A stretch of 64,000 nucleotides of DNA from a virus (Duplodnaviria; Caudoviricetes). Made by a program: the position numbers and the translations under genes. Positions 12,301 through 47,125 of the stretch are shown here, in pieces. The stretch is taken from the IMG/VR virus record IMGVR_UViG_3300005201_000042, positions 1 to 64,000 of that record; one strand, given 5' to 3'. The first letter of the stretch is position 1. The number at the start of each line of letters is the position of its first letter. The notes beneath the pieces are model-generated. The model was not told where the DNA came from and ran no database searches. It worked only from the letters and a program-made list of their open reading frames with translations.

Positions 12301-14755
12301 GGAAAACTTCGGTAAGCATCCTCAAACTGAAAGAGACGCAAAGGTTATATTGAAGACTGCAAAGAAGATGGCTAAGACTGGTCAGATTTACGATGCAGAG
12401 TCTTTCAAACAAGAAGCCCAACAGGTAATGAATGAACAACCCCAGCAAGGTACACAAACTCAGACGCAACAGCAATCTCAAGGTCAACAAGGAAGTGTAG
12501 ACGCTTCTGATCCTGTGGCTCTGTTCAAAGCCATTCAAGCTCTCTACAGATACGGCTCTATTTCTAAAGATCAGGTTGATAAGGCTTTTAGAATGGTTGT
12601 AGGTGGTCAAGGAAGGCAAAATGCTTATAATATGTCAAACCAATCTCAAGGCGAGCAGATGGCTGCTTCCTTAAAGAGGGTTTCTTCTGGTTATGGTGCT
12701 TCTGACGATATTCCCTACGGGTTTAAACAGTTTGATCATGCAGTTAGAATCTACGACTCAAGTAAAGGTATGTTTGACCACTGGTATGCTCCTTCGGGCA
12801 TGGGAAATATCTCAGTTTATGAAAATAAGGATGGTTCTGGGCGGCTTGGCACTCTGAATTTTTCACTATTGAAGGTGTCTCCAGACCAGTTTTGGGGTTT
12901 TATTCGAGACAACGGGCTACTTGCTTCTGACGATGTTTATTCCTCTGTGGGGCTTTCTTCTGGTAAAAACCCAGGTGTAAGATTTGATAGACTTCCCAAG
13001 GGTGTTTCAGGTTTACAAATAGGTTCCAGGGTTAAATTCACACCTCTCAAGTCATCTAAAGACAATCTAGACTTTGTTGCACAGAAAGACACATTGTACG
13101 CTGGTAAAACTGGTGTTATAAGAGCAATTAAAAACGAAGTCTACAATGTTGAAATGCCAGATGAAGATGGTGTCCCAGGAGAGGTGATCTCTGCTCATAG
13201 TATGGAGTTACAGCGAGTAGCCTCTGAGGAAGAACTTTTCTCTGCCAGGGGTATTATTGCAGACCCAATGAGGGAGTACGTTCAACAATTTCTTTCTAAT
13301 ATTCCTTCTTTCACAAAAGTTCCAACAAACTACAAAGATGAACGTATTGTGAAGGAGAAACTAGAGCCTGATCATGTTTGCTATTGGTATTCCGAGACCA
13401 TTGATAATGGTAAGCCTTATACTGTTGAGTTCCACGTGTCTCCAGGTGAACCTTTTTGTGATGTGTATGTGGTTCGTGATTTTGATAATCACCCTTTGGA
13501 CGATGGAGGTTATCACATCGCAGATTTCGAAGATTGGAATTTATCTGAGGTTGATTATGTAGAGGGTTTGTTTGCTAAGGAAAAAGCTTTTACCGGGGAT
13601 AGTGCTTCTTTTGATAAAACTAAGACAAAGCCTGTAGAAGATGGTTTTGACGATGAAGATTATTCACAGATTATGGCTGGGTTGGATCCTCGAGTTTCTA
13701 TCATGTTAGAACTACATCCTGAACTTAGTCACTGGTCACCAGATGATTTAACAGTGTTATATGAATTGCAAGATAGAGGTGGGGATTATGTAGAAGATGT
13801 AAACCGTGTACTAAATACGAGAGATTCAAAGACTTTATTGTCATCTTTTGATAAATGGTCTGCCAGGGTCAGTGCTGGTCTTTCGCTTGGAAAGGGAATG
13901 TCTTTACCTGATATGGCTATTGTTTCTGGTCTAGCACGGATTTTATCTAGTGATTCTATTTCACGTCCTGATGACTCTTTATTTAAACGTGGTGATCGAG
14001 TAAAAGGGACTCCCAGTAACTATAGAAAAGAAGGTCAGTTGGGTACGGTACAAGGTGTCTCTGAGTACAGTGTTTATGGTGATTCTTGGGATATAGAATG
14101 GGACAATGGTGGTATTTCAAGAGCTTTTAAAAATGAGATTGAGCTTATTTCTTCTGGCTTGGCAAGGGTTTTGTCTGCAGGTGCTAATACTTCCACGGCT
14201 TTAACCCCAGAGGAGGTTGTAAGGGATTTTAAAGATGGCGCGATAGACTGGTATAACGCTTTTGATATGTTAGCTGATTATGAGGTATCTGATGAAGACG
14301 CAGAGAGGATGCTTGGGGTATCACGGGTTGTTCAAGGTTTCACCGAGGGTTACAACAAAACCTTAGACGTAGTGGACACTCTTGTTCATGACCCATTAAA
14401 GACAGTTGATGACGTTGCTTCTCTGCCTTTTAAGTTTTTGGACAAGGTTACTGGGAGGAGCAAGAAGAAGGTTAGGTCAAGTTATACACCCTTGTATTCT
14501 GGTGAGTTTAATCGTATACTATCTGCAGGAACAAGGAGTAGTGTTGTCGAGGAGTTCAACAAACTTCTTGAATCTGTCTTTCCTGATAAAAGATGGGAGT
14601 TGAAAAGAGCAGTTCCTATGAGAGGTGGTTGGTATACTTTAGATTTCTTAACGATAGATAAGTCAGATGTTAATTACAATGTGAAGTTTGACGAGAGGAT
14701 TTTCAAAGTTTGTAAGGATTCTAATAGTATTTGGATTATACAGGAGGATTTATAA
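9395..14755 (+). CDS. large polyvalent virion protein (ddrB-like ParB domain, PBECR-type nuclease domain, SH3/KOW-like modules)
   Basis: VVSGNNRTMS plus NTRDY (ddrB-ParB, ~10075-10500); KGCTGKNGYGLLHIIEARH (PBECR, ~11490-11830); two GxRV...GxV modules; start may be 9386. Confidence 0.7.
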   Translation: MSTLKNKSVPILSMARGLPSSVPSYVSNRFNFPDEFDGYYGENKNVQNGNVFSRYIERKDKNNVPFVFHFVFGREKHASLGESLQGNAFKFRALFVQYGDRRFAKKYEDAAFDNIEKVVVSNLLSSIKVLELSEVSEISPLIYIKSGVEIHSKIVDTRTLDLFEDAVDEAFTTSAPAPTPKKEPKPSTQPASRKSTQNYAHEESLEGLKDKYVNTSQGIDGFEDSIYLPNGEEVSGIWRLVDAFSVSPSHNPFSFHSTKGFPRTAGGSSANTRDYYNETDAQLQVVQLAGEFDGRALGYDTAVVVTKDGVVVSGNNRTMSSQLAARKGTDTKYIAALIKRCRSFGFTPEQVQAFEHPRVVFEIDSQDYSPEHFDKYNQSDKKEQSEEARIVKFSKVSKPDVLRGIADVARRYQFDLTQVFAIPAACEELMSVFVKAKVFSQAELPKYFDGNKVSSAGKQFLYEYILGGVLSEPVVRALYSEGMGNLKQAVIGSAQLLLENWACGSYSVMDELNAAIRYAISFVTEVNNGTFVVPKIDKDEAKAMSADDKVAHNLKAFNVWASQGDLLEDRHPLVLKLAGALVYSVPLFKDYLTRLNTATASAAKTERETEEAGNSGLFGDEEDFTPDRYGLLEKAVASWQRRNFVKRNILSSVLRGSFSLFPVKRDWSNIFSSVGSGASVFQKLGDVLKSGSSFVVQNSELGSISIDKGCTGKNGYGLLHIIEARHFRDKLSVDDLCGLIYKVVEAAEGGEVVSHQPDLKAGLDYGHVGIEKDGVIAYVSLARYEDVKDRFILTGFAIYEKEKEATDAIRTGIAQYGYSPEFSCFRSQVGAVIASLNGVCGSFSNNASVYKNGGFMANNKTMVRSGLTGAGTEMDTMISDIKNLFDNHQISDSEAYKRLSGLGLSDPFIHRVMVDWFHSKEARLASGFYPHRSLQSQALFQDLKNKIMKWTAQDPNNKKAYQQAMKLFRENFGKHPQTERDAKVILKTAKKMAKTGQIYDAESFKQEAQQVMNEQPQQGTQTQTQQQSQGQQGSVDASDPVALFKAIQALYRYGSISKDQVDKAFRMVVGGQGRQNAYNMSNQSQGEQMAASLKRVSSGYGASDDIPYGFKQFDHAVRIYDSSKGMFDHWYAPSGMGNISVYENKDGSGRLGTLNFSLLKVSPDQFWGFIRDNGLLASDDVYSSVGLSSGKNPGVRFDRLPKGVSGLQIGSRVKFTPLKSSKDNLDFVAQKDTLYAGKTGVIRAIKNEVYNVEMPDEDGVPGEVISAHSMELQRVASEEELFSARGIIADPMREYVQQFLSNIPSFTKVPTNYKDERIVKEKLEPDHVCYWYSETIDNGKPYTVEFHVSPGEPFCDVYVVRDFDNHPLDDGGYHIADFEDWNLSEVDYVEGLFAKEKAFTGDSASFDKTKTKPVEDGFDDEDYSQIMAGLDPRVSIMLELHPELSHWSPDDLTVLYELQDRGGDYVEDVNRVLNTRDSKTLLSSFDKWSARVSAGLSLGKGMSLPDMAIVSGLARILSSDSISRPDDSLFKRGDRVKGTPSNYRKEGQLGTVQGVSEYSVYGDSWDIEWDNGGISRAFKNEIELISSGLARVLSAGANTSTALTPEEVVRDFKDGAIDWYNAFDMLADYEVSDEDAERMLGVSRVVQGFTEGYNKTLDVVDTLVHDPLKTVDDVASLPFKFLDKVTGRSKKKVRSSYTPLYSGEFNRILSAGTRSSVVEEFNKLLESVFPDKRWELKRAVPMRGGWYTLDFLTIDKSDVNYNVKFDERIFKVCKDSNSIWIIQEDL
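14482..14520 (+). promoter_or_regulatory. early promoter embedded in CDS
   Basis: TTATACACCC-TTGTAT-N17-TATACT. Confidence 0.75.
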
Positions 14756-14946
14756 TGGCTTGGAAAACAATCTACAAAGGTACTTCAGGGGAAGAAGCAG
14801 CTATGGCTGTAGCAAATAGTCTTCGCAAGGCTGATCGTGAACGTGAAGAGTATTTGCAGAGCAAGCAACAAGCACAGGTTTCTACTCCTTCTAACAACTC
14901 AGGTAACTCTTCTGCTAACGTAGCAGCTTCTCTTAAAAGAAACTAA
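14755..14946 (+). CDS. small Q/N/S-rich protein
   Basis: ATG overlaps upstream TAA; RBS AGGAGG; ends VAASLKRN. Confidence 0.6.
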   Translation: MAWKTIYKGTSGEEAAMAVANSLRKADREREEYLQSKQQAQVSTPSNNSGNSSANVAASLKRN

Positions 14947-15175
14947 TCAACTTAAGTATGGAGCCTTATTATAAGGATATACAGTCTTTACCTTTGATGG
15001 AGTTGGAGTCTGTTAATCTCCCCCATTCAATTAGACCTTTTCCAAGTTACTGACTTATGGACTGGTAGTATTGTAAATTGTGATCTTCAACATGAGTTTT
15101 TATTCTGTTATCCTGTTAGTGAGCTTTCCATACAAATTTGAGTTAACAGGTTACCTGATTTTCGTATTAGGGTGT

Positions 15176-15571: not shown

Positions 15572-15578
15572 GAGTCTT

Positions 15579-15878: not shown

Positions 15879-15911
15879 TTTTTACTATAATTTCAATTTT
15901 AAATAAACCAA

Positions 15912-15949
15912 TTATACACACTTGTTATATTTTCTTCATGCGTTAATGT
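15912..15949 (+). promoter_or_regulatory. early promoter family copy
   Basis: TTATACACAC-TTGTTA-N16-TAATGT. Confidence 0.7.
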
Positions 15950-15978
15950 AGTTATATAAACTTAACGGAGGGAAGTGA

Positions 15979-25359: not shown

Positions 25360-26934
25360 ATGGGTACGCAATACGATAATTTCTATTGTCCAGCTGATTC
25401 AGATAATTACGGTGATGAGCTAGCAAATTTGATGGGTGCCTTTGAGAGAGAGGAAATTTGCGAGGCTGAGTTTGTAGAAATTCTTAAGAAGAATGGGTAC
25501 TCGCCTTCTCAGATTGAGGCTAATCTTAAAGAGGTTGAGTTTAATCGTACTGCATACCCTTTAGAGTTAGAATTAAAAGCAAGAGCAAGAGGGGTTAACC
25601 AATCAATGAAAAACTTTGATACATTTTTAAACGCTTGTGAGTCTATTAAATATTTAGACTCTGTTGTTAAGGAAGGGGACACTTACACCCTTATCGGTTG
25701 TGGTAAAACTTTACAGATTAAAGAACGAGTTGACAGCAAAGGCAATCGAGAAGTTCTGCTCTGGAGTAAAACCGAGCCTTCTAACCTTCACAAGGTAGTT
25801 GGTAACGATGTAGAGAAGATTCTCCCTCGCTTGGTTGTACAACACTTCACTGGTATAAAGTCTAGTGTTGAATTCACAGACCACGAAAATCACAAGCATA
25901 TTTTTGAAGACGTTGGTTTCTTTCCTGTCTCTGTTCATAGTGATATGGTCAGGTTTGGGGATGCTACTGGCAGAAAATGGGTATGCAGTGCAGGTGGTTC
26001 TAACGTTCCCAATATTACTCTGGCTTTTTACAAACTCTTGTACGATGGTCGGACGGATATGTCTGCAATGATGTTACCTAAGCTCACTCCTCTGGACGAT
26101 GTTAAAGTAATCAAGTCAGGCAAAGGTGGCAAAGATGTAGAGGTTTTTGAACTTCCTAAATTCCCAGAACCTTCTGAGGATTTTATTGTGTCTTCTGTAG
26201 AAGACTTTAAGAGAGCTGTTCCTAATTACGAATCTTTTATGATGTTTCCGCATCAAGGCGATGTGCCTGCTTATGGTCATTCCATTGTTTCTGGTATGGT
26301 GGTTTCGTCTGCCGATAGACCTTTTATTACATCTGCTGAGAAGAAGATGAGAGGGTTTATTAAGTCTTCGGATGAATTAGATTGGAAGGCTTATCAAACT
26401 TTTTCTGATATAGTTGATGGTCTCATGGCTCAGGGTTATTCTGAAGCTGACGCATTGAAACTTGCAAATGAGTTAAGAGGTAAGGACTCTGCATCATCAT
26501 CCGCTAAAAGACCGATTAAGTCAGTTACTGAGGGAAAAGGCAGTTTTCTCAACCATATGGCAAAACAAAGCGGTAAATCTATTACAGATAAACAAGGTAA
26601 TCCTTTAGACCCAGATAAAATGTATCAGGATAATGGTTCTGGCTATGAAGAGATGGGGCAATCTCTACAGTCAGGTAAGAGACCCATTAAGTCAGGTTTA
26701 ACTTTTGAAGGTGTAGATCCTAAAGTCTGTGATGGTTATTTAAACTACCTTCTTGGTGGGGGTGTTCCTGTAGATAAAGCGATGGAGCTAACACAAGATT
26801 TTGTTAATCGTATAATTGAGGACTGTGATAGGTTTGCGGTTAGTGAATATGTAAATCGTGGTATTGACGAATATAATAAAAGCCTTCCCCAATCACGGAA
26901 ACAACCCCAAACTTTTACCCAGCCCACTATGTAA
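25360..26934 (+). CDS. modular putative internal head polyprotein
   Basis: GIKSS, VIKSG, FITSA, FIKSS, RPIKS x2; helical GYS/GVP modules. Confidence 0.6.
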   Translation: MGTQYDNFYCPADSDNYGDELANLMGAFEREEICEAEFVEILKKNGYSPSQIEANLKEVEFNRTAYPLELELKARARGVNQSMKNFDTFLNACESIKYLDSVVKEGDTYTLIGCGKTLQIKERVDSKGNREVLLWSKTEPSNLHKVVGNDVEKILPRLVVQHFTGIKSSVEFTDHENHKHIFEDVGFFPVSVHSDMVRFGDATGRKWVCSAGGSNVPNITLAFYKLLYDGRTDMSAMMLPKLTPLDDVKVIKSGKGGKDVEVFELPKFPEPSEDFIVSSVEDFKRAVPNYESFMMFPHQGDVPAYGHSIVSGMVVSSADRPFITSAEKKMRGFIKSSDELDWKAYQTFSDIVDGLMAQGYSEADALKLANELRGKDSASSSAKRPIKSVTEGKGSFLNHMAKQSGKSITDKQGNPLDPDKMYQDNGSGYEEMGQSLQSGKRPIKSGLTFEGVDPKVCDGYLNYLLGGGVPVDKAMELTQDFVNRIIEDCDRFAVSEYVNRGIDEYNKSLPQSRKQPQTFTQPTM

Positions 26935-26946
26935 CAAGTAGTGGGC
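26922..26946 (+). other. hairpin spanning the stop codon (no U-tract)
   Basis: GCCCACTA/TAGTGGGC. Confidence 0.5.
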
Positions 26947-26962: not shown

Positions 26963-27001
26963 CTATACACCCTTGTTTTCTAGAAGTCGCTATGCTATAT
27001 T
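26963..27001 (+). promoter_or_regulatory. early promoter family copy
   Basis: CTATACACCC-TTGTTT-N17-TATATT. Confidence 0.7.
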
Positions 27002-27005
27002 AAGT

Positions 27006-27296
27006 ATGGCGGAACAAGCTTTATCGGCAATTAACCAAACTTTGGATACTTGGTTTCTAAGTTACACTAAGAAATTGTTTGCGTACTATGGAGAAGGGAC
27101 TTATGGGCATTCTGCAGAGACCAACGCTTGGCAAATATCTATTCCAGATAATAATTTGAAAGTGAGTATTGGCTGGTCTGCTGAGCAAGGGGATTATGTT
27201 TACATAGTAATCAAAGATGGTTCTAGAAAGGATGGAAGGGTTCAGAGTTTAAAGGATCTGAAACTTTTATTTCCAGATGTTTTTGGGGGGTCTTAA
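27006..27296 (+). CDS. hypothetical protein (probably leaderless)
   Basis: ATG 4 nt after the -10, no SD; C-terminus resembles the tail modules of 27277-28404 and 43514-47125. Confidence 0.55.
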   Translation: MAEQALSAINQTLDTWFLSYTKKLFAYYGEGTYGHSAETNAWQISIPDNNLKVSIGWSAEQGDYVYIVIKDGSRKDGRVQSLKDLKLLFPDVFGGS

Positions 27297-28404
27297 ATTG
27301 ATTAATGAACAGCACTTGAGAAAAGAGATCCATAAATTTACGTCTTCTGTACTTTCTCAAATGTCCGAAGAGCAATTAAATAAACTTAGTAGAGACCTTC
27401 AAGAAGATTCTGATATGCTTACGTCTTCTACTCAGTTTGTAGATGATTCTGCTAGTAACAATGGCGTTCCTTCTTATTTCATAACAAGTAGTGGGCGTAT
27501 AGTAGACGATTCATACGAAGGCGGTTTATGGGTTTCTCCTCAAGGCAAGGCTTATGAGGTTACAGGGGATCATTCGGAATATATTTTAGAGTATCCCTCT
27601 TTATTTGGAATAGACGTTTCTGGTTTTGAATCAGACGATACCTTTGGCTTAGATGATTCTGATAGAGATGTTTTATATGAACAAGCTTATTCCAAAGGCT
27701 GGGCTAGGGTTCGCATTGTTGACGGAGATATATTTGTAGATGTCATCCGTTCAATTAATACAGATAGGTTTCTTTCAAAGGTAGTTCAGTGTATTCTTGA
27801 TTATGGCGTTCCTTATGACTCAGCTATTCATGTTGAAGTGTTAGAGGACTCTGGTCAATATTCTAATTCAAACGAGTCTTTATCTTCTCTGCTCACAAGT
27901 CGTTACTCTGCCAAGGCTGGTCTTTTTAATGTCCAGGCGAAATGGATACAGGGTTTGCTTACGAGGGAAGAAGCTATAGCGGAGTTGGTAAAGACGGGCA
28001 AGTCCAGGGAAATAGCTAATAAGATACTGGACTCTTGGGGTACGAGGTTTTCGAGTTATACACCCTTGCATTCTGGCACGGGTATTGCTAATCTTATAAT
28101 TAGCTCACCAGACAAAGATTATGAAGTAGCTAAAAGTGGTACACGTTACTGGTTAGACGGGGTTTGTAAGCGTATACAATCTAATCTTGGGAAGAAGGGT
28201 ATTAAGGCTACGATAAGTCCAATAACGAACTTAACCTGGAGGGTTGTCGTGGGTCAGAAGGTTGTCTTTCAAGTTATTTACTCATCCTCTAATAATGTGG
28301 ACTTCTTTGATTATACTTATTTTAATGCCTCTGGGAAATCCTTTTCAGGTCAGGTAAGACGTATGGAAGATTTAAAGGGTTTAATTTCTAAGGTAGGGGT
28401 TTGA
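27277..28404 (+). CDS. modular protein: WISP domain, GYS-like module, promoter-linked tail module
   Basis: LTSS, ITSS, LTSR, IISS separators; true start may be TTG 27298. Confidence 0.6.
   Translation: MFLGGLKLINEQHLRKEIHKFTSSVLSQMSEEQLNKLSRDLQEDSDMLTSSTQFVDDSASNNGVPSYFITSSGRIVDDSYEGGLWVSPQGKAYEVTGDHSEYILEYPSLFGIDVSGFESDDTFGLDDSDRDVLYEQAYSKGWARVRIVDGDIFVDVIRSINTDRFLSKVVQCILDYGVPYDSAIHVEVLEDSGQYSNSNESLSSLLTSRYSAKAGLFNVQAKWIQGLLTREEAIAELVKTGKSREIANKILDSWGTRFSSYTPLHSGTGIANLIISSPDKDYEVAKSGTRYWLDGVCKRIQSNLGKKGIKATISPITNLTWRVVVGQKVVFQVIYSSSNNVDFFDYTYFNASGKSFSGQVRRMEDLKGLISKVGV
28056..28094 (+). promoter_or_regulatory. early promoter embedded in CDS
   Basis: TTATACACCC-TTGCAT-N17-TAATCT with extended TG. 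Confidence 0.7.
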
Positions 28405-28405
28405 T

Positions 28406-28636
28406 ATGCATGACGATGTTGATGAACAGATTCTTGGAGTTTTAAAAAATCTTTCTCCCGAGGCTCTTGCTTGTCGTGTAAAAGAAGTCAATTACTTACG
28501 AAAAAAGTACCCTGATTTCTTTCCTAGTTCTCAGGTCTCTTCTGGTGTAAAAATTTTAAATGAAGACAGGGTTGCTCTTGACCAGGCTTTTGCAAAATTA
28601 GACCAAGAAGGCTTTAAAAGGTTGGCAAATGAATAA
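28406..28636 (+). CDS. hypothetical protein, paralog of 47127-47459
   Basis: LKNLSPEA...YPDFFPSS vs IKSLSPES...YPNMFSSS. Confidence 0.6.
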   Translation: MHDDVDEQILGVLKNLSPEALACRVKEVNYLRKKYPDFFPSSQVSSGVKILNEDRVALDQAFAKLDQEGFKRLANE

Positions 28637-28999
28637 AGAAGAATTTTTAACTGCTTATCGTACCTTAGTTAAAAGAGCATTTAATTTTTCGGAGATTGGT
28701 CGGTGTGAGGGTCTATTGGCTTTAGAGTCCCTTGTTGACAAAGATAAGGTTGATAAAAGGGATATTTTGAATATGGTGTTCAGCTTGTAATTGATGGTAC
28801 GGAGCCTGCTTTTTTGGATAAGATTTTGTCTAATTTAATATCCTTAGAAGAAAATGCCTATTTAACACATTTTAAAACTATTCAAAAAGAGGCTGTGTTG
28901 ACTCTTCAGAGTAATGCAAATACTCGCCTTCTGATGCTTTTACTAAACTCCTATTCTGATCTTCCATTAAGTGACCCTATCTTCGGTTTGCAAGAATAG
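28629..28999 (+). pseudogene. MotA cytoplasmic-domain-like gene with 1-bp deletion
   Basis: MNKEEFLTAY...GRCEGLLALE; GATATTTTGAA lacks one T relative to paralog RDVFEYG; homology resumes in the other frame (EYGVQLVIDGTEP). Confidence 0.75.
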
Positions 29000-29038
29000 T
29001 ATTCCTCCCTTGTCTCTTCTCTGCTGGTATGATACCTT
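29000..29038 (+). promoter_or_regulatory. early promoter family variant
   Basis: TATTCCTCCC-TTGTCT-N17-TACCTT; same position as the 47836 copy relative to the MotA-like gene. Confidence 0.55.
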
Positions 29039-30041: not shown

Positions 30042-31865
30042 ATGAGTGTTGTTCATTCTTCAGTTAAGAGACCTATTAAGTCTCTTGTCCAGCCTTCTGC
30101 TCGACATGGTTCTAATTCTCGTTCAGATAAAGAAATGTGGGACTCTTATTGGAACCATGAGCCTTTTCTTTCTGACGCAGGTAAGTTTAACTTACCTGCC
30201 TATATAGACAATTTCAGAAGGGGTCTTGCAGATGAGGAATCTCTTAGGGCTTTTCTTTTGTCTCAGGGTTATGAGGAGTCTGTGGTGGAGTTTGTCTTAA
30301 ATAAAGAGGTGGAGAGAAAAAAACAAATAGACGAATACAACTCCACCACAGGTAATAGTATGTCTTATTCTTCACTTAAGAGACCTGTTAAGTCTTCTTC
30401 CTCTAACCTTAAATCCCTAGTAAAATCAGCAAAAGAGTTTCAGTTCAAATTATTTGACACAGGGGCTTTCCAACTTGACTTATCGCAAGACAACAACGGC
30501 TCTCCTTTATGCTCAAGCATAAAAGGTTCAATTGACGCAGGTGCGGTTCTCTCAATTGCCAGCAGGGATGGTTACACGTTCCACGACCTCTCTCAAGGGG
30601 TTAATTTGTCTGGTTCTCCTATCCTTGATGAATACAAGTCCTTACTAACGTCCACAGCTTCTCTTACGCCTGTGGAATACAAACCTATCAAACGCCAACT
30701 TGAAACTTGGGTACTTTCTGGCAAAGAGTTAGACAAAGAGCTTGCTTCGTGGGGTTTAAACAACCCAGGGCAGGTTTTCCAGTCGATGAAGGTGTTAGGG
30801 ATTGATCTTTCGGGTAAGGATACTGTGCCTGTTCGGTCTTCTGTTCAACAAGGACAACGCTTGGGTTTTAAGAAGCCCGTTGCTTCAACAGGCAATGGGC
30901 AGTTAGTCAAATCCAGTAACGACATTTATACAAGATACTTAAGTCTTCTTAATGAGGGGATCTCTGACAGACATGCAAGAAATCAATTAGTGGAAGAGTT
31001 TGGTCAATCTGCTGAGGGTGATTCTTATGCCTCTTTTATTGACGAAGTAGAGGCTCAAGATGGGGGTCAATTTTTAGGTTCAAGTGCTGCGCCTGACTCT
31101 GACGTAGGCATAGCTTTGCAGTATGTTTTTGATAATGACATTCCTCACGATTTTGAACGGGTTTATGAGGCTCTGGTTATGTCTGGCTTATGGGAAGGTG
31201 AGGATGAGGATTCTGTATTTGACCTTGCCTTCTTGGTTTGTAACGAGTTAGGTGTTCCTCTTGCATCCTCTGTTAAGAGGTCTATTAAGTCTTCTGCTGG
31301 GGGCTTTGGTACAGATGATTATTACAAACTTAAAACTGTTTATATGCATAATCTTCTTCGCCAGGGTTATTCTGAAGAAGACGCGGATAGGATGGCTGAT
31401 GAATATGTAGTAAACTTCCGAGGTGATTTAGAAACAGAAGGTGAGGGTGCAATTCAGAGAAACTGGAACAAGTCTAACCCCACGTCTCCCATGCAGTTTG
31501 ATGTAAACTCTTCTAACAAACGCATCCCCATTCAGCAAGACTTTAAGGGCATGTTGGAGATGATAAAAAACTGGCTTAAGAGGGTGCATGAGGGTCTAAT
31601 GGAGCAAAGCGTTTTTTACTCCAACCTTATGCGACTTTTGAGAGGTAATGGTTACCCTGGGAGCAAGGCGAATACTATTTATGAGGAGTTAATGGCTGGT
31701 AAACCTGTAGAGGCTGTTATGGCCAGTCTTCGGCGTGTGGGGAGTTCTGCTTCTGTGGGAGATTATTGGGGAGATGAGGAGAGGCATCGCAGATTTTCTT
31801 CTGTTTCAAGGTCTAAGGCTGTAGATAAGCAACCCACGGGTTTTCAGAAGCCCACTGCTCGGTAG
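30042..31865 (+). CDS. modular putative internal head polyprotein
   Basis: more than 10 sites such as VHSS, RPIKS, RPVKSS, LVKSA, PVRSS, LVKSS, PLASS, IKSS. Confidence 0.65.
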   Translation: MSVVHSSVKRPIKSLVQPSARHGSNSRSDKEMWDSYWNHEPFLSDAGKFNLPAYIDNFRRGLADEESLRAFLLSQGYEESVVEFVLNKEVERKKQIDEYNSTTGNSMSYSSLKRPVKSSSSNLKSLVKSAKEFQFKLFDTGAFQLDLSQDNNGSPLCSSIKGSIDAGAVLSIASRDGYTFHDLSQGVNLSGSPILDEYKSLLTSTASLTPVEYKPIKRQLETWVLSGKELDKELASWGLNNPGQVFQSMKVLGIDLSGKDTVPVRSSVQQGQRLGFKKPVASTGNGQLVKSSNDIYTRYLSLLNEGISDRHARNQLVEEFGQSAEGDSYASFIDEVEAQDGGQFLGSSAAPDSDVGIALQYVFDNDIPHDFERVYEALVMSGLWEGEDEDSVFDLAFLVCNELGVPLASSVKRSIKSSAGGFGTDDYYKLKTVYMHNLLRQGYSEEDADRMADEYVVNFRGDLETEGEGAIQRNWNKSNPTSPMQFDVNSSNKRIPIQQDFKGMLEMIKNWLKRVHEGLMEQSVFYSNLMRLLRGNGYPGSKANTIYEELMAGKPVEAVMASLRRVGSSASVGDYWGDEERHRRFSSVSRSKAVDKQPTGFQKPTAR

Positions 31866-31893
31866 GTGGTGGGCGTTCTAAAGACCGTCAAAG

Positions 31894-31932
31894 TTATACA
31901 TCCTTGTTATCTCAAGATTCCAGTCGTATACT
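31894..31932 (+). promoter_or_regulatory. early promoter family copy
   Basis: TTATACATCC-TTGTTA-N17-TATACT. Confidence 0.75.
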
Positions 31933-31939
31933 ATTTGAC

Positions 31940-32467
31940 ATGAGCAGGAAAACCGATAAAACTAAACAGAGTCTCTCTCTAATGACTAAGGAAGAACAGG
32001 AAAGTTTCTGGCTTTCACAAGTAAAAAGAAAGAATGCTATCTGGTCAATGTCTATGGTGGGGGATTTAACGGAACTTCCTGAGGGAGTGCCTTCGCCTGT
32101 TTATGAGGGTGGTCAACAAATTGGGGTTGTGGATATTCCTTCTGAGCTTTATAAGCTTGTAGACATAAGTAGAAGTGTAATTGTGTTTGCTTCTAATATA
32201 ACTAGCGATGGGGCTTCTAGTGCTTTCACGATTAATGCTCTGGGTGCTTGGGATGTTCCAGAGGTGGATTTTAATTGGGGCTTAACACAAGGGGTCAGAG
32301 ATTTGGCTTTTAGGTGTAAGCGTTTATATCCTTGTAATGTTCCAAAGGGCTTTAATATAGATAGTCTTATTGAGTTGTTAACTAACGGGAACGTAAGATC
32401 TTTTATTCTGGATTATGGTAAGTTACAAGATAATGTAAAAGAGATAATAAGGCAAAGGGGTCTTTAA
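31940..32467 (+). CDS. hypothetical protein (probably leaderless)
   Basis: ATG 7 nt after TATACT, no SD. Confidence 0.55.
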   Translation: MSRKTDKTKQSLSLMTKEEQESFWLSQVKRKNAIWSMSMVGDLTELPEGVPSPVYEGGQQIGVVDIPSELYKLVDISRSVIVFASNITSDGASSAFTINALGAWDVPEVDFNWGLTQGVRDLAFRCKRLYPCNVPKGFNIDSLIELLTNGNVRSFILDYGKLQDNVKEIIRQRGL

Positions 32468-37775: not shown

Positions 37776-38831
37776 ATGGGACAATGGATTTTCGGTAAGG
37801 CATCCCCTGTTTCTTTGTCTGATAAAGGCAAGCAGTTATTAAAATCTTCAGGTTGTATTGTAAGTGATTATGTTGGTGAGTCTGGTTCTTCCAGCAATGG
37901 TCTTCTCTGTACCTTTAAATCTGTTCCTATTGCCTTCTACGACGTTCCTACGCTCAATCAGATGGTATTTAGCCGTAAGCTCTGGGAATGTCTGTTAGAG
38001 AACCAATATCTCAAACAATCAATGGAGAACGGTTCACACTATGGAGAGGCTAAACACGCCGACCGTGATGAGGTTTATCTTGATGAAATAGCTTGCAGGG
38101 TGAACAAGTTCTGGTTCGGTGATAACAATATTCTTTTGGGTGATGTAGACATTCCAGACACTCCTAAAGGACGAATTGTTCATTCCCTTGCTAAAATCAG
38201 CAGGGTTGGTATATCTTCCAGGGGTTTTGGCGAGTTAAGGAACAGGGACGATGGTTTAAAGGACGTTATTCCTGACCAGTATATGCACGTCTGCTGGGAC
38301 ATGGTTGCTTTCCCTGCTGTGCCTGACGCTCACATGACTTTAATTACTGGGGATTCACCTTATGACGAGACAATCAATATGTCCACGGAGCTTCGTAACT
38401 TGATAAGGGAGGCTTATCAAAGGAATCCTAAAGACAAGGCTTTACAAAAGTTGGTTTCCACTGCAAAGATACCCACTGGTAAGAAGTACGATTTTTCACT
38501 TAAAAATGATCTAGACAGAGCAATAATCTCTCATGAGTTAAAGAGGAGAAATAGTTATCCACCCTTGCATTCTAGAGGCATAAGTCGTATAATGAGTTCT
38601 AGAAGAACAATTTCTGCAGCAGTGGCTTATATTTCACAGGCAGTAGGTTCTTTTTATACTGGGGCTTCTTGGAGATTGTCTGTTGAAAATCTACCTGAGG
38701 CTACTTTGGATAATAAGGGTTCTGTTCAGTCTCTTAGTATTTACTATAAGGTAACTAATAAAGAGAGTAGAAAAACTTTTAATATCCGTGCAGTGGTTTC
38801 TTCAAATGGTTTTCAGTTAAGGAGGGGTTAG
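37776..38831 (+). CDS. prohead core protease (T4 gp21-like) with C-terminal extension
   Basis: NQMVFSRKLW, YGEAKH, VGISSRGFG, WDMVAFPA. Confidence 0.88.
   Translation: MGQWIFGKASPVSLSDKGKQLLKSSGCIVSDYVGESGSSSNGLLCTFKSVPIAFYDVPTLNQMVFSRKLWECLLENQYLKQSMENGSHYGEAKHADRDEVYLDEIACRVNKFWFGDNNILLGDVDIPDTPKGRIVHSLAKISRVGISSRGFGELRNRDDGLKDVIPDQYMHVCWDMVAFPAVPDAHMTLITGDSPYDETINMSTELRNLIREAYQRNPKDKALQKLVSTAKIPTGKKYDFSLKNDLDRAIISHELKRRNSYPPLHSRGISRIMSSRRTISAAVAYISQAVGSFYTGASWRLSVENLPEATLDNKGSVQSLSIYYKVTNKESRKTFNIRAVVSSNGFQLRRG
38555..38593 (+). promoter_or_regulatory. early promoter embedded in CDS
   Basis: TTATCCACCC-TTGCAT-N17-TATAAT. Confidence 0.75.
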
Positions 38832-38833
38832 TT

Positions 38834-39022
38834 ATGGCTCAAGTTGTTAAGATTACTAAGGAGAATGAGAACAAGTACTTTTTTGACTTTAATGAGAAAG
38901 CTATCTTAAGTGGTATGGAATCCGCTATTCCCCAGTTAGAGTCTTGGGGGGTGATTCCTAAACAATCTCCAAGAAGTAAAGAGAAAATTGCATCTACATT
39001 AAAAATTCTTAGTGGTAAATAA
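38834..39022 (+). CDS. hypothetical protein
   Basis: RBS AAGGAGG. Confidence 0.55.
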   Translation: MAQVVKITKENENKYFFDFNEKAILSGMESAIPQLESWGVIPKQSPRSKEKIASTLKILSGK

Positions 39023-39777: not shown

Positions 39778-41244
39778 ATGATTGAATCAATGGATGAACA
39801 GGGTGTACGTTCTGCTCTGGCTAGTCGGTTTCAGAATGTAGCTGCTTCGGCAGGTGGGGGTAAACCCAGCATATATCAAGATCTAATTGCAAGTTCTGCC
39901 GCAGCTTACCAGAGGAAGTGGAAAAAAGAACTTCCCCAGTCTGTTAAAGCGGTTCTAATGCAGTCTCTTGATAAGATGACCCAGATATTCCAGAACCGTG
40001 ATCGGGTTTCGAGAGAAACAATCATGTCTGCGGTGTCAGATATAGCTAAAGTAGACAATCCTATTACTCTGGCTTACAACCTGATGTCAATTCTTATTCC
40101 TAACTTTGCTTACACTGAGGTTATCGGAATTCAGCCCATTCCTACAAAGGAATCTCCTGTTTTCTATCCGAGGATTGTGGCGAATGAGAATAGGAATAAT
40201 GTGACAAAAGGCTCTGTTCTGCTTGGGTCAACAAACTGGACAGCAAGTAACTCGTTCACAACTAACCAGGTAGCTTCTCCTGTGACTGTTGGTAATACTA
40301 CGGCTCTTTCTTTTACTGCACCTGAAGGTAATATTACGCCGGGTAGCCTTGCGATTACATTGAAGCTTGTAGGCTTGGGTACTTACGTGGTGTTTGATGA
40401 TGGTAAAGGGGTTTTAGTTCCTATTTCTGGTGTCACTGCCTCTACGGCTGGTACAGTAAACTACGCTACTGGTGGGGTTTCTTTAACCTTAGCCGCAGCG
40501 GCTCCAGCTAACTCATCGGCATCCGCTCGCTATCGTTATGAGTTTGCAGATACTACAAAACCTGCACAGGCTAAGCTTGAATGGGTAACTGAGAAAGTAC
40601 GTGCAGAACCCTACAGAATTCGCACAATTTACGAACTTGATGATTTCTTCCAGGTCAAGCAAGTTCTGAGCAACTACGATATTGACTCGGTTCTTTCAAG
40701 TTCGGTGGCAGGTTATATAAACAAAGAAATCAGCGGGAATGTCTTTGATGACATTCTTCTGAAGACTGATGCTGACTTTGCGTGGAATTCGTCTAATCCG
40801 AGTGGTGTTGCTTGGGCGTTGCACAGGTTGTCTTTAATGCAGACATTTGTAAGGGCTGGCAATGGTATTCGTCAGAACATTGCACGTGCTGGAGGTAATA
40901 TTGCCATCTGCGGTAATGAGTGGATGAACTTCATTGAGACTTTGGGTGACGATCTTTGGAAACCAGAGAAGTTTACTGAAGAACCAATAGGGCCTTACGT
41001 TGCAGGTACTTTGGCTGGTAAATTCAAGATTCTTAAGAATCAGGATTACCCTGATACCAAAGCGGCAATGGTGTACAAAAGGGATGACGTGGATGCTTCA
41101 ATTGTTGGTGGTGTGTTCATCGGTTTGTATGCTACTAACCCAGTGGCAATGGACGACCTTAAGGTTATTCAGGGCATGGGCACTCAGTTTGGGTGGCTCA
41201 AGACCTTTGATAACTCAATAGTGTCTCTTACGTTACAGCAGTAG
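39778..41244 (+). CDS. major capsid protein (T4 gp23-like)
   Basis: IPNFAYTEVIGIQPIPTKESPVFY, INKEI, GTLAGKFKILKNQDY; between protease and terminator. Confidence 0.88.
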   Translation: MIESMDEQGVRSALASRFQNVAASAGGGKPSIYQDLIASSAAAYQRKWKKELPQSVKAVLMQSLDKMTQIFQNRDRVSRETIMSAVSDIAKVDNPITLAYNLMSILIPNFAYTEVIGIQPIPTKESPVFYPRIVANENRNNVTKGSVLLGSTNWTASNSFTTNQVASPVTVGNTTALSFTAPEGNITPGSLAITLKLVGLGTYVVFDDGKGVLVPISGVTASTAGTVNYATGGVSLTLAAAAPANSSASARYRYEFADTTKPAQAKLEWVTEKVRAEPYRIRTIYELDDFFQVKQVLSNYDIDSVLSSSVAGYINKEISGNVFDDILLKTDADFAWNSSNPSGVAWALHRLSLMQTFVRAGNGIRQNIARAGGNIAICGNEWMNFIETLGDDLWKPEKFTEEPIGPYVAGTLAGKFKILKNQDYPDTKAAMVYKRDDVDASIVGGVFIGLYATNPVAMDDLKVIQGMGTQFGWLKTFDNSIVSLTLQQ

Positions 41245-41826: not shown

Positions 41827-41829
41827 CTT

Positions 41830-43085: not shown

Positions 43086-43119
43086 AAAATGTTTAAATCT
43101 TAATTAAAGGAGGGATGAA

Positions 43120-43299: not shown

Positions 43300-43302
43300 C
43301 TT

Positions 43303-43470
43303 ATGAAAAGTAAGTACTCTGTTGAGAAGAGAACCGCTGACGAACGCTTTACTCTTACAATTCCAGGTTTGGACTATGCTGTTGGGGATGTTTACTTTGT
43401 TTTAAAAGAGCATGAGCAAGTTGTCGCTTGGGCACATACAGAGGATGGTGCTTGGGCTTGTAGACTCTAA
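43303..43470 (+). CDS. hypothetical protein (55 aa, not in ORF track)
   Basis: ORF ends just before the terminator. Confidence 0.45.
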   Translation: MKSKYSVEKRTADERFTLTIPGLDYAVGDVYFVLKEHEQVVAWAHTEDGAWACRL

Positions 43471-43476
43471 CTTAAC

Positions 43477-43508
43477 GCCATCCTTCGGGATGGCTTTCGT
43501 TTTATATA
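43477..43508 (+). terminator. terminator fused to late promoter, copy 1
   Basis: GCCATCC-TTCG-GGATGGC-TTT then TTTATATA (43501-43508). Confidence 0.85.
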
Positions 43509-43513
43509 CTAAT

Positions 43514-46500
43514 ATGAATAATTTTGTCTCTGTGTCTTCAAAGCCTTTAGTTATACGAATATCATCCTCTGCTAATCCAGGCTATATTTCAAAAGCTGTA
43601 ACTACTGTTAAGAGGTTTCTAGACAACGTTGGTGCTTGGTATAAGTATCACAGAAGCAATAAATCGAATAGTGAGTATTTTCTGGTTGAACGTCCGAATG
43701 ACAGGATGTCTCCGGAGGTTGACGTTCGTGTTTCAGATCACAATCTCCCACACGTATATGATCAACCAGACCTAGATATTGACCCCAGTTCTCCAGGTCG
43801 TATTGGTTCTTACTCTGTTCCAGAGGCTCTAGACTTGCTTGAGGGCTTCTTTGACGGGGAATACGTAAATATAGTTGAGGGTGAGCCTATTGTGTCTTCT
43901 AAAACTTATACACCCTTGTATTATGGCAATCGCAAGGGTATTATAAAGAGTAGTAGACGGGAGGCAACGCTTGAACGGTTTAACAAGATTGAGCAAACTC
44001 AACCAGATGTATGGCGTATATTACATACAAAGGCATCCGATCCTAGTATGCAGGGTTATAATACCCTTTTGGGTGTGGGTTCTTGGGACTATCACCAAGA
44101 TTCAACTTTAGCTGGTTTGATTAGGGATTCTTGGAAAAAAGGTTATACTACTTTCTTCTTGGAAGACAACGAGGTTGTTCATGGTTTTTTAGCTTTTATG
44201 GTTAGTGGTGATACAATTTATAATGTTAAGACTTTTTCAGTGGTTAGGGACGTTAAAAACGGAGAGGATTTAAAGAGGTTTGTGAGGGATTACGTGCCAA
44301 ACTATAATTTAGTTTGGGAGGCACGTGAGGACAACAAAGCATGTAAGCGTTACGAGGATATAACGAGGTTGTATGGTGGTACTGTTACACCGAGTACAGA
44401 AAATCCTAACCATCTCATTTTTAAGATTAGAAAGGGGTCTGTGCCGAATTCCACACGGGTTTCTTTACATTCTCATAGCAGGTTGGAGCAAAGCTATAAA
44501 AATAGGTTTTCCTCATCCTCACCCACGGTTTGCAGTGAGTTCGGAGCTTCTTTTAAGCAGTTTTCACTGGAGAATAGTTCTTCTGCAATCAAGAATAGAC
44601 GATTTACAAGAAACATTAAAATCTTAAGTACTTTTAACGAACAAGCCTATTCAGATTGGTTTTTAGAAGAATCCTCTAGGTTTCTTGGTAAATCTGAGGA
44701 TGAAGTTCTTTCTCTCCCAAATTACAAAGATAAGCTAGACACTTTTTTGGATGAGGCACGTGAATGGCATTCTATGTCTCAAGAGGAAAGGGAAAGGTGG
44801 TATTTGTCAGGTGCTGGTAGAACTATTTGTACGTCTTCTGTTGTGCGTTTTTTATGGGCGGATAAGTCTTATCCATCCTTGTATTCTAAACTTTCTCAAG
44901 GTAATATTAACAAGTCTATGGGTCGTAAGTTTATTTTTAATTCCAAAGAGATGCTCTCAGGCGGTGTTTGGATAAGCCCTTCTGGAGATATGTTTGGTGT
45001 TCCTTTGACTCATATAAAAGCTGTAATAGAAGACCCTGCTAAGTTTGGTTTATCTGTTGAACAGTTAAAGGCTATTTACAATAAGCATAACGAGGGTATT
45101 GGATCAGAGGGGGACGCAAGAGACGAGGTTATTTCTTTGCTCATTTTTAATGGCTGGGTAAGAATTAGGTTTTACCCAGGCGAGTATTTTCATGTAGAGT
45201 TAAATAAATTAAGTCAAAAATATAAAAATGTTTTATTCTCTTGGGCTTCTAAAGTGATCAGTAAGTCTCCAGAGAAGAAAGCTCTTTCTGTCATTATTTG
45301 CGAGAGACTAGGAAATTTTGAATATTCTTTTAAATTAGAAGATTTGCAGGTTTCTTTTGTTTCTTCTGGTAAAACTGGAGATTTAGCTTATTGGATAAGT
45401 CCTTCGGGAGAGCTTATAAGTACGCATGGTAGTCATACAAGTACAGTAGTGGAAACTCCTGAGGTTTTTGGTTTTACAGAGGAAGAAGTTAATACTTTAT
45501 TTTCGGTCGGTGAGGAGGAAGCTGTTCTTAAGTGTTTAATAGGTAACGGTTGGATAAGGCTTCGTTATCAGGCTGGTTGTTATTTTGTCTCTGTGTTGTC
45601 TTTGTCTCCAGAGACCCAGCAAAGGTTGCAGAACTGGGCTTTGCATGAGGGGAACGAAGATAAGGATACTACAGTTATTATTGAGATGTTGGTTTCATTT
45701 AACGTTATAAAGGTTACTTTACGAGATGTTTCTAGAGGTGTTTTTTCACATGATGCTTCCCTGCCTATCCATTCATCGGTTGATTATGATGAGTGGAGTC
45801 TTATTCCTAGTAGTCTTAGAACAATAGGAAACGCACAACTAATCGAGTCTGCTACTATTCAAGACCTATTAGACGAGAACGATAAGAACCCAGAGTTTAC
45901 TCACAGGGCAGAGCATTTAGACGCTACGAAGGCTCAGGGTGATTCAGAAATTACTCGCTGTTACGCTTCCACAGTCGAGTTAAGAACCAAGTCTGAGCAT
46001 TTTAAGGAGAATAATACCTATTATCGGCAATGGGTACTTTTTAAGGATTTTGTTTCAATAGCACGGGACAAGAAGATCAAACTTGAGGACGCTGTGGATT
46101 ATGCTATTAACTTTTGTGATATAACTATTAGATGTTCCTGCCCTGATTTTTTGTATAGAGGGTACTCTTACATGGGTGATCAGCTTGGTTATCTTTATGG
46201 TCTCCCAAGAGAGAAGCGGTTTCCTAAAAGAAATAACCCCAATCTTAAGCTTGCGGTTTGTAAGCACTCGGATATAGCATTAGAACATCTCCTTAAAAAT
46301 AAAGAGAAACTTATAAAAATGTTTGGTGTATATTACAAGAGGATAAAAGAGACTCCACCTGACACTATGATTGCTGTCCCTGCTAAAGCCGCAGAGGAAA
46401 AGAAAGAGGAGTCTATTGAGGACTTCTTAGCTGGTTTTGACGAGGATGGAAATAAAATATCAGAAGAAAAAGCAGACCTTAAAGAAGATGACGGTGTTGA

Positions 46501-47125
46501 GACTATTTCAGAACAAGACCCTGACTCTGGTGTTATTAAAATAGACACAAAACTTGCCGAGGGTAATTTACCGCCAGACCAGCAGGTTAAGTACGCAGGC
46601 GATGAAGATAAACCTGTGGACGAAAACACTCTAGAAAATGTGGCTGATTCTATTTCCGATGAGGAAGAAGAGGAATTAGCCACTCAGATTGACGAAGCTT
46701 CTCTTTCTGGTTCTCCTAGGAATGATAATGAGAAGTTCATGCACGAGTGGTCTTTCCAGCGGTTTAAACCTAATACTTATACAGACTTGTATCCTAATAA
46801 TTATCATGCTAGTCTTATAACAAGTTCACCAGACAAAGATTATGAACCTGCTAAGTCTTATGTAAGAAACTGGTTGGACAGTATTTGTAAGAGTGTTCAA
46901 GCGAACCTAAAAAAGAAGGGTGTTGTTTCTACAATAAGTCCTGTAACAGGTTTGACTTGGAAAGTAGCAGTAGGTCAGAAGGATGTTCTTAAAATAGACC
47001 TTTCCTTCCCTTCTGGTAATTACTGCTTTAGTTATACATATTTAGATAGAACAAGTAAATCATTTTCAGGAAAGACTATGAAAATGGATGCTTTAATACA
47101 GCTTGTTCCAAAGGTTGGGGTTTGA
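43514..47125 (+). CDS. large modular virion protein: RVSDH domain, GNAT-like domain, two WISP domains, SWIM Zn finger, acidic region, tail module
   Basis: start moved from 43412 because a terminator and late motif lie upstream; CSCPDF...CKH SWIM; EDNKACKRYE GNAT-like. Confidence 0.65.
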   Translation: MNNFVSVSSKPLVIRISSSANPGYISKAVTTVKRFLDNVGAWYKYHRSNKSNSEYFLVERPNDRMSPEVDVRVSDHNLPHVYDQPDLDIDPSSPGRIGSYSVPEALDLLEGFFDGEYVNIVEGEPIVSSKTYTPLYYGNRKGIIKSSRREATLERFNKIEQTQPDVWRILHTKASDPSMQGYNTLLGVGSWDYHQDSTLAGLIRDSWKKGYTTFFLEDNEVVHGFLAFMVSGDTIYNVKTFSVVRDVKNGEDLKRFVRDYVPNYNLVWEAREDNKACKRYEDITRLYGGTVTPSTENPNHLIFKIRKGSVPNSTRVSLHSHSRLEQSYKNRFSSSSPTVCSEFGASFKQFSLENSSSAIKNRRFTRNIKILSTFNEQAYSDWFLEESSRFLGKSEDEVLSLPNYKDKLDTFLDEAREWHSMSQEERERWYLSGAGRTICTSSVVRFLWADKSYPSLYSKLSQGNINKSMGRKFIFNSKEMLSGGVWISPSGDMFGVPLTHIKAVIEDPAKFGLSVEQLKAIYNKHNEGIGSEGDARDEVISLLIFNGWVRIRFYPGEYFHVELNKLSQKYKNVLFSWASKVISKSPEKKALSVIICERLGNFEYSFKLEDLQVSFVSSGKTGDLAYWISPSGELISTHGSHTSTVVETPEVFGFTEEEVNTLFSVGEEEAVLKCLIGNGWIRLRYQAGCYFVSVLSLSPETQQRLQNWALHEGNEDKDTTVIIEMLVSFNVIKVTLRDVSRGVFSHDASLPIHSSVDYDEWSLIPSSLRTIGNAQLIESATIQDLLDENDKNPEFTHRAEHLDATKAQGDSEITRCYASTVELRTKSEHFKENNTYYRQWVLFKDFVSIARDKKIKLEDAVDYAINFCDITIRCSCPDFLYRGYSYMGDQLGYLYGLPREKRFPKRNNPNLKLAVCKHSDIALEHLLKNKEKLIKMFGVYYKRIKETPPDTMIAVPAKAAEEKKEESIEDFLAGFDEDGNKISEEKADLKEDDGVETISEQDPDSGVIKIDTKLAEGNLPPDQQVKYAGDEDKPVDENTLENVADSISDEEEEELATQIDEASLSGSPRNDNEKFMHEWSFQRFKPNTYTDLYPNNYHASLITSSPDKDYEPAKSYVRNWLDSICKSVQANLKKKGVVSTISPVTGLTWKVAVGQKDVLKIDLSFPSGNYCFSYTYLDRTSKSFSGKTMKMDALIQLVPKVGV
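43906..43944 (+). promoter_or_regulatory. early promoter embedded in CDS
   Basis: TTATACACCC-TTGTAT-N17-TATTAT. Confidence 0.65.
46777..46815 (+). promoter_or_regulatory. early promoter embedded in CDS
   Basis: TTATACAGAC-TTGTAT-N17-TAGTCT with extended TG. Confidence 0.65.

Follow-up and report, generated by a model that had tools for sequence, protein, structure and literature searches.

The DNA analysed here (the window, 64,000 nucleotides) is the first 64 kb of IMGVR_UViG_3300005201_000042, an 86,115-bp viral contig from IMG/VR with a completeness estimate of ~60%, and the element under study is a 45-base promoter-like motif that recurs in frame inside several of its head genes. The window has a GC content of ~39%, and almost all of its genes lie on the + strand; the gene at 56101–56493 is the only one on the minus strand. 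A structural module is present, with a terminase, a T4-type portal, an S77 (gp21-type) prohead protease, a gp23-type capsid protein, a sheath and a tape measure, and the window phage is a distant T4-like phage that is uncultured.

No close relatives were found among deposited phages or in IMG/VR: a megablast of the polyprotein gene (43412–47125) against phage records, an exact scan of IMG/VR for the motif and a protease-based search for related loci all gave zero matches. Homologues of the protease at 40–90% identity were found in metagenomes, and relatives were reached through protein homologues and the contigs that carry them. Six related loci (L009, L011, L013, L014, L015 and L016) were compared, L012 being the L011 contig from a second source. 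The set of in-frame copies of the motif comprised 34 sequences, 9 from the contig of the window and 25 from L009, L011, L013 and L016 (five genomes).

In-frame copies of the motif

Copies of the motif were located inside coding sequences of the window at the following positions, where a slash follows the Ser of I-x-S:

14482–14526, + strand: copy in the 1793-amino-acid (aa) ParB-domain protein; −35 TTGTAT at 14492–14497, −10 TATACT at 14515–14520, peptide SYTPLYSGEFNRILS/A
28056–28100, + strand: copy in the 375-aa protein; −35 TTGCAT, weak −10 TAATCT with TATAAT 6 nt later, peptide SYTPLHS..LIIS/S
38555–38599, + strand: copy after the protease domain; −35 TTGCAT, −10 TATAAT at 38588–38593, peptide SYPPLHSRGISRIMS/S
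43906–43950, + strand: internal polyprotein copy; −10 TATTAT at 17 nt, peptide TYTPLYYGNRKGIIKS/S
44869–44913, + strand: extra in-frame polyprotein copy; SYPSLYSKLSQGNINKS, 2 mismatches
46777–46821, + strand: copy preceding the C-terminal type-C tail; weak −10 TAGTCT at 17 nt, peptide TYTDLYP..LITS/S

All of these copies except that at 44869 had been quoted in a preliminary description of the DNA as early promoters lying inside long open reading frames (ORFs) in one shared frame. Translation at the five sites bore out the shared frame, which reads T TAT ACA CCC TTG, and the five linker peptides that had been given for them. The ORFs that hold the five sites span 9374–14755, 27277–28404, 37776–38831 and 43412–47125, with two copies in the last. 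Each of the five comprises the 16-mer TTATACACCCTTGYAT at 0–2 mismatches, a 17-nt spacer and a TAnnnT hexamer, and TAnnnT was found exactly 17 nt after TTGNNN in every coding copy of the window. At ≤3 mismatches, the 16-mer occurred 16 times in the window compared with 1.2 expected occurrences. The in-frame copies at 26963, 31894 and 44869, another at 64720 just beyond the window, and ~12 non-coding copies are additional to those first described. The −10 region or the bases that follow it had also been said to encode I-x-S. This held for all five copies, but at 28056 and 46777 the −10 at canonical spacing is weak and the I-x-S codons are displaced by +6 nt (two codons); at 43906 they are displaced by +3 nt.

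The copy at 43906 is kept in the orthologues of L016, L013 and L011. The true start of the polyprotein is probably the ATG at 43514, because a hairpin terminator (43477–43494) and a TTTTATATA box sit inside the mechanical ORF just before that ATG. A late-type TTTTATATA box followed by 5 nt and an ATG was present at 43477–43516, 3940–3964 and 48380–48405, an arrangement that matches a leaderless T4-late start.

Carriers and tails

Nearly every coding copy had the layout of a carrier, a linker and a tail, with an open frame of 150–1700 codons upstream of the motif and 81–131 codons downstream to the stop. The carriers are the S77 prohead protease, the 1793-aa ParB-domain protein, the 375-aa protein and the polyprotein of ~1200 aa. 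The motif was found in three settings, namely at the joint between carrier and tail (tails of 80–130 aa), between segments of polyproteins (43906, 44869 and L011 18071, conserved in orthologues) and at the N-terminus of free tail proteins. The protease domain and the tails of the window are as follows:

37776–38552, + strand: S77 (T4 gp21-type) prohead protease domain, which carries the copy at 38555
14483–14755, + strand: type-B tail, 90 aa, homologous from the first base of the motif to the L009 protease tail and next gene
28057–28404, + strand: type-C tail, 115 aa, with disordered linker, helix, 5-strand sheet and helix; paralogue of 46778–47125
38556–38831, + strand: protease tail, 91 aa; type A or type B at the same position in relatives
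46778–47125, + strand: type-C tail, first part of a duplicated cassette

The several tail types share one common pattern, which consists of a disordered linker, a long helix, a conserved Trp, a five-strand meander and a C-terminal helix. Pfam assigned no family to the tails or the downstream genes, and a Foldseek search of the tail against the PDB gave no match. Alignment of the tail with VIA-align pointed to a generic alpha+beta sandwich (frataxin/CyaY, Med17C; Z 6–9), a range that is usual for unmatched models. When 1.84 billion proteins were searched with a profile of linker plus tail, only 38 cluster representatives were retrieved; in about half of them the match is C-terminal on a larger protein, and the other half are free. 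Several free tails start a few codons ahead of the linker, for example MERF-YTPLYSG..AIFS/MAGG, so the linker peptide is also a short N-terminal extension; the free tail of L017 has a Shine-Dalgarno (SD)-like AAAGGG 8 nt upstream of its ATG. Leaderless expression of free tails from the embedded promoter was considered and dropped, because an ATG is present in only 11 of the 34 copies, at a tight 4 nt after the −10, and several free tails begin upstream of the motif instead.

Orthologues of the window polyprotein with NUDIX and Hint/intein-type domains were found at L014 15378–20081, L015 9458–12703, L016 14609–18313 and L011 14850–20300. Those of L014 and L015 stop exactly where the linker and tail begin in the window and in L011.

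Constraint at the nucleotide and peptide levels

Across the 34 copies, information was high at positions 1–18 and 34–39 and low across the 15-nt spacer, and three-base periodicity was absent. The base before TAT, a third codon position, was T in 32 of 34 copies, although the codon specifies 7 different amino acids, and the base before ATA was T in 33 of 34, with 8 amino acids encoded. Rare codons were fixed, with CCC used for 27 of 27 Pro (9% genome-wide), TTG for 34 of 34 Leu (18%), ACA for 28 of 29 Thr (28%) and ATA for 26 of 30 Ile (29%), and the adjoining Gly codon was free to vary. The depressed synonymous variation across related phages that had been proposed as a check was seen, with silent sites frozen and rare codons fixed in the 34 copies. 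In its form, this nucleotide pattern is that of a −35/−10 promoter and not a residue of gene conversion, since a conversion tract would have made the spacer uniform as well. The idea that ATACA..TGTAT forms a hairpin or operator was also tried and dropped, as the variants TTGCAT and TTGTTA occur without a compensating change.

The encoded peptide, Y-T-P-L-Y-S-G-x4-A-I-x-S, is, judging from its codons, also under amino-acid selection. The Ser after I-x is encoded by both AGY (14) and TCN (12), and positions 8–9 encode Pro, Asp or Ser in the coding copies and read CAC, CTC or others in the non-coding copies. L011 has a lineage-specific variant of the motif, with AGAC in place of ACCC.

The preliminary description had named random frames in related genomes as an outcome that would speak against dual-coding DNA; instead, 34 of 34 copies from the five genomes were in the same frame. 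Its estimate of (1/3)^3 for a frame shared by chance fails, because the copies are homologous cassettes and not independent, and their frame is inherited. A shared frame is expected because, with all copies read in one frame, a crossover within the motif yields an in-frame fusion. The dual-coding interpretation thus stands as regards simultaneous constraint at the nucleotide level (promoter-like) and at the peptide level, but not as regards the (1/3)^3 argument.

Non-coding copies and promoter status of the motif

Common to the non-coding copies are the block TTATACACNCTTGT and a TAnnnT hexamer, and ~10 of 13 such copies sit 15–50 nt before SD+ATG starts, oriented with the gene. Two examples are given here, and further non-coding promoters of the family were found at 5825, 25297, 42827 and 47836:

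56465–56503, − strand: motif copy directly upstream of the only minus-strand gene (56101–56493), with SD and ATG
15912–15950, + strand: non-coding family promoter, class I, TTATACACACTTGTTA...TAATGT, then SD and ATG

A hairpin terminator precedes some of the non-coding copies. Because these copies precede SD+ATG starts, that of the minus-strand gene included, the motif family behaves as a promoter in its placement. The arrangement is like that of the sigma70-like 'early' promoters of T4-type phages. The element is probably a member of the sigma70-type promoter family of this lineage, in which an extended −35 block TTATACACNCTTGTWT and a TAnnnT −10 are separated by 17 nt. Both blocks of a sigma70 promoter were recognised: the −10 bases T, A and T at positions 1, 2 and 6 were present in 33, 34 and 31 of the 34 in-frame copies, and the −35 hexamer matches TTGACA at 3 of 6 positions only.

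The coding copies lie 250–400 nt before the start of the next gene. This gene is usually translationally coupled to the tail, the last codons of which carry its SD (28380–28410, 47100–47130, 14740–14760 and 38815–38840); K-V-G-V-stop is encoded by AAGGTAGGGGTTTGA and followed by tATG, and in most relatives, too, the tail stop adjoins or overlaps the next start. The head genes own T4-late-like TTTATATA boxes. The coding copies quite probably fire as promoters, as no other first-order reason was found why two blocks should be conserved around a spacer that is free to vary.

A recurrent hairpin, GCCATCCTTCGGGATGGC plus a T-run, was present at 43477–43494, near 48370 and near 78645 of the contig, with a promoter after each (late box or class I). 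An antisense copy of the 16-mer with 1 mismatch lies at 11931–11946 (−) inside the 1793-aa ORF with no ORF after it, and may be an antisense promoter or a relic.

The motif as a recombination joint

Windows of 1.1 kb around the motifs were compared all-against-all. For pairs with the same carrier and a different tail, homology was lost at +17 to +60 of the motif, and carrier-orthologous pairs often regained homology at the tail stop, where the next gene begins. For pairs with the same tail on different carriers, homology was gained at −11 to +1. At least 16 pairwise comparisons ended in one of these two intervals (−11 to +1 or +17 to +60), as breakpoints do in the PeSL units of T4-type phages that are considered in the Discussion. 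The segment 14481–14838 matched L009 10782–11139, which covers the tail of the protease and the first part of the gene after it in that locus, at 68%; the protease genes of the window and L009 aligned only to ~100 nt before the motif. Segments 28056–29000 and 46777–47826 are an old duplication (68–73%) that comprises the motif, the tail, a small gene and a MotA-like gene, with unrelated carriers. In L013, a cassette of 611 bp, made up of another tail and a gene for 69 aa, lies between a carrier and a tail that are fused directly in L009. This cassette is flanked by identical ~54-nt repeats containing the motif, and no cassette is present in L009.

The suggestion made earlier that promoter-plus-gene cassettes were captured onto virion proteins is supported, for units of promoter and tail with or without the downstream gene, by these comparisons, in which the carriers differ and the breakpoints fall exactly at the motif. 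On these alignments, the motif is the crossover point for the exchange, insertion and duplication of promoter-plus-tail cassettes, in some cases with the next gene, always in frame. Assembly chimeras at the repeat were considered and dropped, as the k-mers far exceed the motif in length and the protease–tail junction was seen again in assemblies made independently (ENA, JGI and Logan).

Within the duplicated segments (28406–29000 and 47127–47826), the MotA-like gene of the 28-kb copy is split into two ORFs (28629–28790 and 28814–28999) and is therefore probably decaying.

The linker peptide and its candidate cleavage

The linker and tail were kept in all protease homologues, down to 40% identity. 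In L014 and L015, the most distant, the linker and tail are found on the protease only, and the DNA keeps CTTGTTTTCTG-N12-TATAAT. S77 proteases bear a C-terminal propeptide, and the S77 protease gp245 of SPN3US removes its own 64-residue C-terminal propeptide by cutting after A-x-E (PMC10052503). The linker studied here was predicted to be disordered (pLDDT <50). Of the features of an S77 site, location at module borders of head proteins, an exposed segment and a matching site in the capsid protein were found. A motif with Glu at P1 (L/I/A-x-E) was not a universal feature of the linker; the universal feature was I-x-S, and Glu follows I-x-S only in type-B tails, as [VI]-[VI]-E.

Peptide sites without promoter DNA were also present at module borders (ARILS/S, ARVLS/A, WIFS/MAR and PILS/MAR), and the free-standing gene at 8951 begins exactly at the MAR that follows I-x-S in the fused paralogues. 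The capsid protein has a comparable site:

40021–40032, + strand: I-M-S/A of the capsid protein, residues 82–85; conserved candidate maturation site in the N-terminal region, no promoter DNA

ETI[MT]S/A is conserved in the capsid protein in 7 genomes, ~15 residues before a conserved N-arm, and a T4-type maturation cut is expected around this region from what is known of gp23. On balance, we lean towards cleavage of the linker. The P1 residue may be Ser or a nearby Glu, because the capsid protein has an invariant Glu close to this Ser and the known S77 enzymes cut after Glu.

A module of ~130 aa beginning with MAR occurs three times (8280–8669, 8951–9373 and 9434–9830), in turn fused after WIFS, free-standing behind a promoter-like motif and an SD of its own, and fused after PILS. 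At both fused MAR junctions, I-x-S/M is kept and the promoter DNA is not.

Candidate −1 frameshift joints

For the copies at 26963 and 31894, no in-frame start codon was found upstream of the motif. Both lie in frames that could be entered from the gene before them:

26963–27296, + strand: motif plus 110-aa tail, frame reachable by a −1 shift from ORF 25360–26934
31894–32467, + strand: motif plus 187-codon downstream frame, reachable by a −1 shift from ORF 30042–31865
31838–31874, + strand: candidate −1 frameshift signal, G_GGT_TTT, 5-nt spacer and hairpin with the 0-frame stop in the loop; dG −26.9, z −4.3
26910–26946, + strand: second candidate −1 frameshift signal, A_ACT_TTT, non-canonical P site, same hairpin; z −3.3

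Both signals have the hairpin GCCCAC..GTGGGC, and the stop of the 0 frame falls within its loop or close to it. The genes upstream of both joints end in a conserved ..F-[QT]-x-P-T.., and the −1 frame, which becomes open immediately ahead of the heptamer, continues through the motif into the tail. A like layout was present at L011 5525–5561 and L016 1737–1773, and in L016 the −1 frame enters the whole next gene. G_GGT_TTT, 5 nt and a hairpin were common to the sites at 31838 in the window, 5525 in L011 and 1737 in L016, the z values of the signals lay between −2.75 and −4.3, and pairs of the inner stem show compensatory changes between copies. All parts of a −1 frameshift signal were therefore found: a heptamer, a spacer, a stable structure and an open −1 frame into an extension. 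From their layout, these two apparently free cassettes look as though they are joined to the upstream genes by programmed −1 frameshifting, which would give a sub-stoichiometric fusion.

Discussion

The explanation that we favour, and consider probable, is that a sigma70-type promoter became coding, as an in-frame linker between head carriers and swappable tails. The embedded copies would still act as promoters, and the prohead protease would cut the disordered linker at I-x-S or close to it, which would free the carrier and the tail inside the capsid. The tails would descend from the C-terminal propeptide domain of the protease and would anchor or accompany cargo in the prohead. More tentatively, the motif may be an in-frame adaptor, in which T ATA xTx of the −10 is read as P3–P2 of a Ser-specific S77 site and the extended −35 as Y-T-P-L-Y-S. 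A promoter-led cassette that recombined at the motif would then be fused in frame to a capsid-internal protein, packaged and cut free, and would still be transcribed from its own promoter; the transcription and protease codes would have co-evolved, and the −1 frameshift joints would be a second route to such fusions.

Several observations weigh against the favoured explanation. The hexamers at 17 nt in the copies at 28056 (TAATCT) and 46777 (TAGTCT) are weak, TTGTAT makes a poor −35 hexamer when judged by the E. coli consensus, and a generic sigma70 scan showed no enrichment and did not single these sites out. An early role is odd for copies in the head module, because this is a late module with its own TTTATATA promoters. 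The tail folds were matched only generically, with no family assigned. An invariant Glu is present 4 residues before the Ser in the capsid protein, and T4 gp21, phiKZ gp175 and SPN3US gp245 cut after Glu, not Ser (PMC10052503).

The embedded copies might also be fossil promoters, fused by recombination at promoters and possibly still working, with translation merely tolerated as a passive spacer. The breakpoints at the motif would account for the fusions without any function of the peptide, the linker is predicted to be disordered, and Ile and a hydrophobic x can be read as by-products of TATAxT. A neutral linker is nevertheless quite unlikely, as the Ser after I-x is kept despite switches between AGY and TCN, Pro, Asp or Ser is favoured where a promoter accepts any base, I-L-S recurs without promoter DNA at module borders and in the capsid protein, and free tails, which start at an ATG of their own, still carry the peptide as an extension at the N-terminus. 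A purely protein-level signal for processing or targeting, with nucleotide identity due to recent duplication or conversion and embedded copies that are not promoters, would agree with the peptide being kept in every protease homologue and with some copies being recent duplicates with identical spacers. We regard it as very unlikely: the flanks and the 15-nt spacer are randomised and the two blocks fixed, although conversion would homogenise the spacer, the third-position T is kept across 7–8 amino acids with rare codons fixed, and non-coding copies in promoter positions contain these two blocks as well.

The tails may be prohead-anchoring propeptide domains or variable cargo. If they were a polymorphic payload (effector or anti-defence, with the downstream gene as partner) packaged by the carriers, the linker would be a conserved pre-toxin motif, like VENN in CdiA or the MuF–toxin junction. 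This fits a promoter reading, the tail and the start of the downstream gene travel together, one carrier has different tails in different phages, an orphan-like tail copy lies behind an inserted cassette, and the family is tiny and fast-evolving (the 38 representatives among 1.84 billion proteins). It is unlikely, given that the tails resemble one divergent fold family (helix, Trp, beta-meander, helix) and not unrelated toxin folds, that the tails and downstream genes match no toxin or immunity family, and that the most distant relatives carry the tail on the protease only, as a propeptide would be. The least probable explanation, and a highly improbable one, is that the blocks are read by a factor other than RNA polymerase, either a phage DNA-binding protein on the ATACA..TGTAT dyad or as an mRNA signal. 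The −35 block does hold a 5-bp inverted repeat, and its 13-nt conservation exceeds that of a normal −35 hexamer, but TTGCAT and TTGTTA break the dyad with no compensation, the hexamer TAnnnT stands as second block at a spacing of exactly 17 nt, and the non-coding copies are positioned and oriented as promoters.

PeSLs are conserved units of a sigma70-like promoter and a stem-loop that flank ORFans in T4-type phages and mediate insertion, deletion and replacement by homologous recombination; their promoter activity and mini-circles have been shown experimentally (PMC2839356; PMC4122927). The element studied here is like the PeSL (Arbiol et al. 2010; Comeau et al. 2014) in being a repeated sigma70-like promoter motif that acts as a crossover for promoter-led cassettes, and the window phage also has composite hairpin-plus-promoter units (43477, near 48370 and near 78645). 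PeSLs, in contrast, are intergenic, have a terminator stem-loop and end in SD+ATG, and no such composite was found in the coding copies, which have no stem-loop or stop. The element is set apart from the PeSL members because it is translated in one frame inside ORFs of head genes, has no terminator and shuffles protein domains. From this comparison, it is best described as an in-frame, coding version of the PeSL-mediated shuffling of T4-type phages.

Lambda C/Nu3 and P2 gpO are nested in-frame head genes, and lambda G/GT and T7 10A/10B have −1 frameshift extensions. The likeness to these systems is that a C-terminal domain occurs both fused and free and that the candidate joints consist of X_XXY_YYZ and a hairpin. 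The known cases use internal translation starts, and we know of none among them in which the junction is a promoter or a repeated exchangeable module. With polymorphic toxins and polyvalent proteins, the system shares a conserved junction before variable C-terminal modules that are swapped with the downstream gene, and large virion proteins with ParB, NUDIX or Hint domains. It differs in that its variable ends look like one fold family and its junction is a promoter motif; no MuF domain and no toxin or immunity family was found in the carriers, tails or downstream genes. As in the S77 processing of T4, phiKZ and SPN3US (Weintraub et al. 2023, PMC10052503; PMC7411985), the protease has a removable C-terminal extension, the head or ejection proteins are precursors or polyproteins with short recognition motifs at their borders, and short N-terminal propeptides of ~20 aa are present. 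The known motifs end in Glu (L/I-x-E, A-x-E) and the substrates lose N-terminal propeptides, whereas the candidate motif of the window is I-x-S and the cargo bears C-terminal tails related to that of the protease itself.

By itself, the sequence evidence describes a junction that is constrained at two levels and that preserves the frame through shuffling. If the copies fire and the linker is cut, one short DNA word would be a promoter, a protein linker and processing site, and a recombination joint. This would show how phages attach new genes to capsid-delivered proteins with reading frames intact, would carry promoter-mediated (PeSL) shuffling beyond whole genes to the level of protein domains, would suggest that the T4 gp21 protease family has a Ser-specific branch, and would offer a ready design rule for cargo loading into T4-like capsids.

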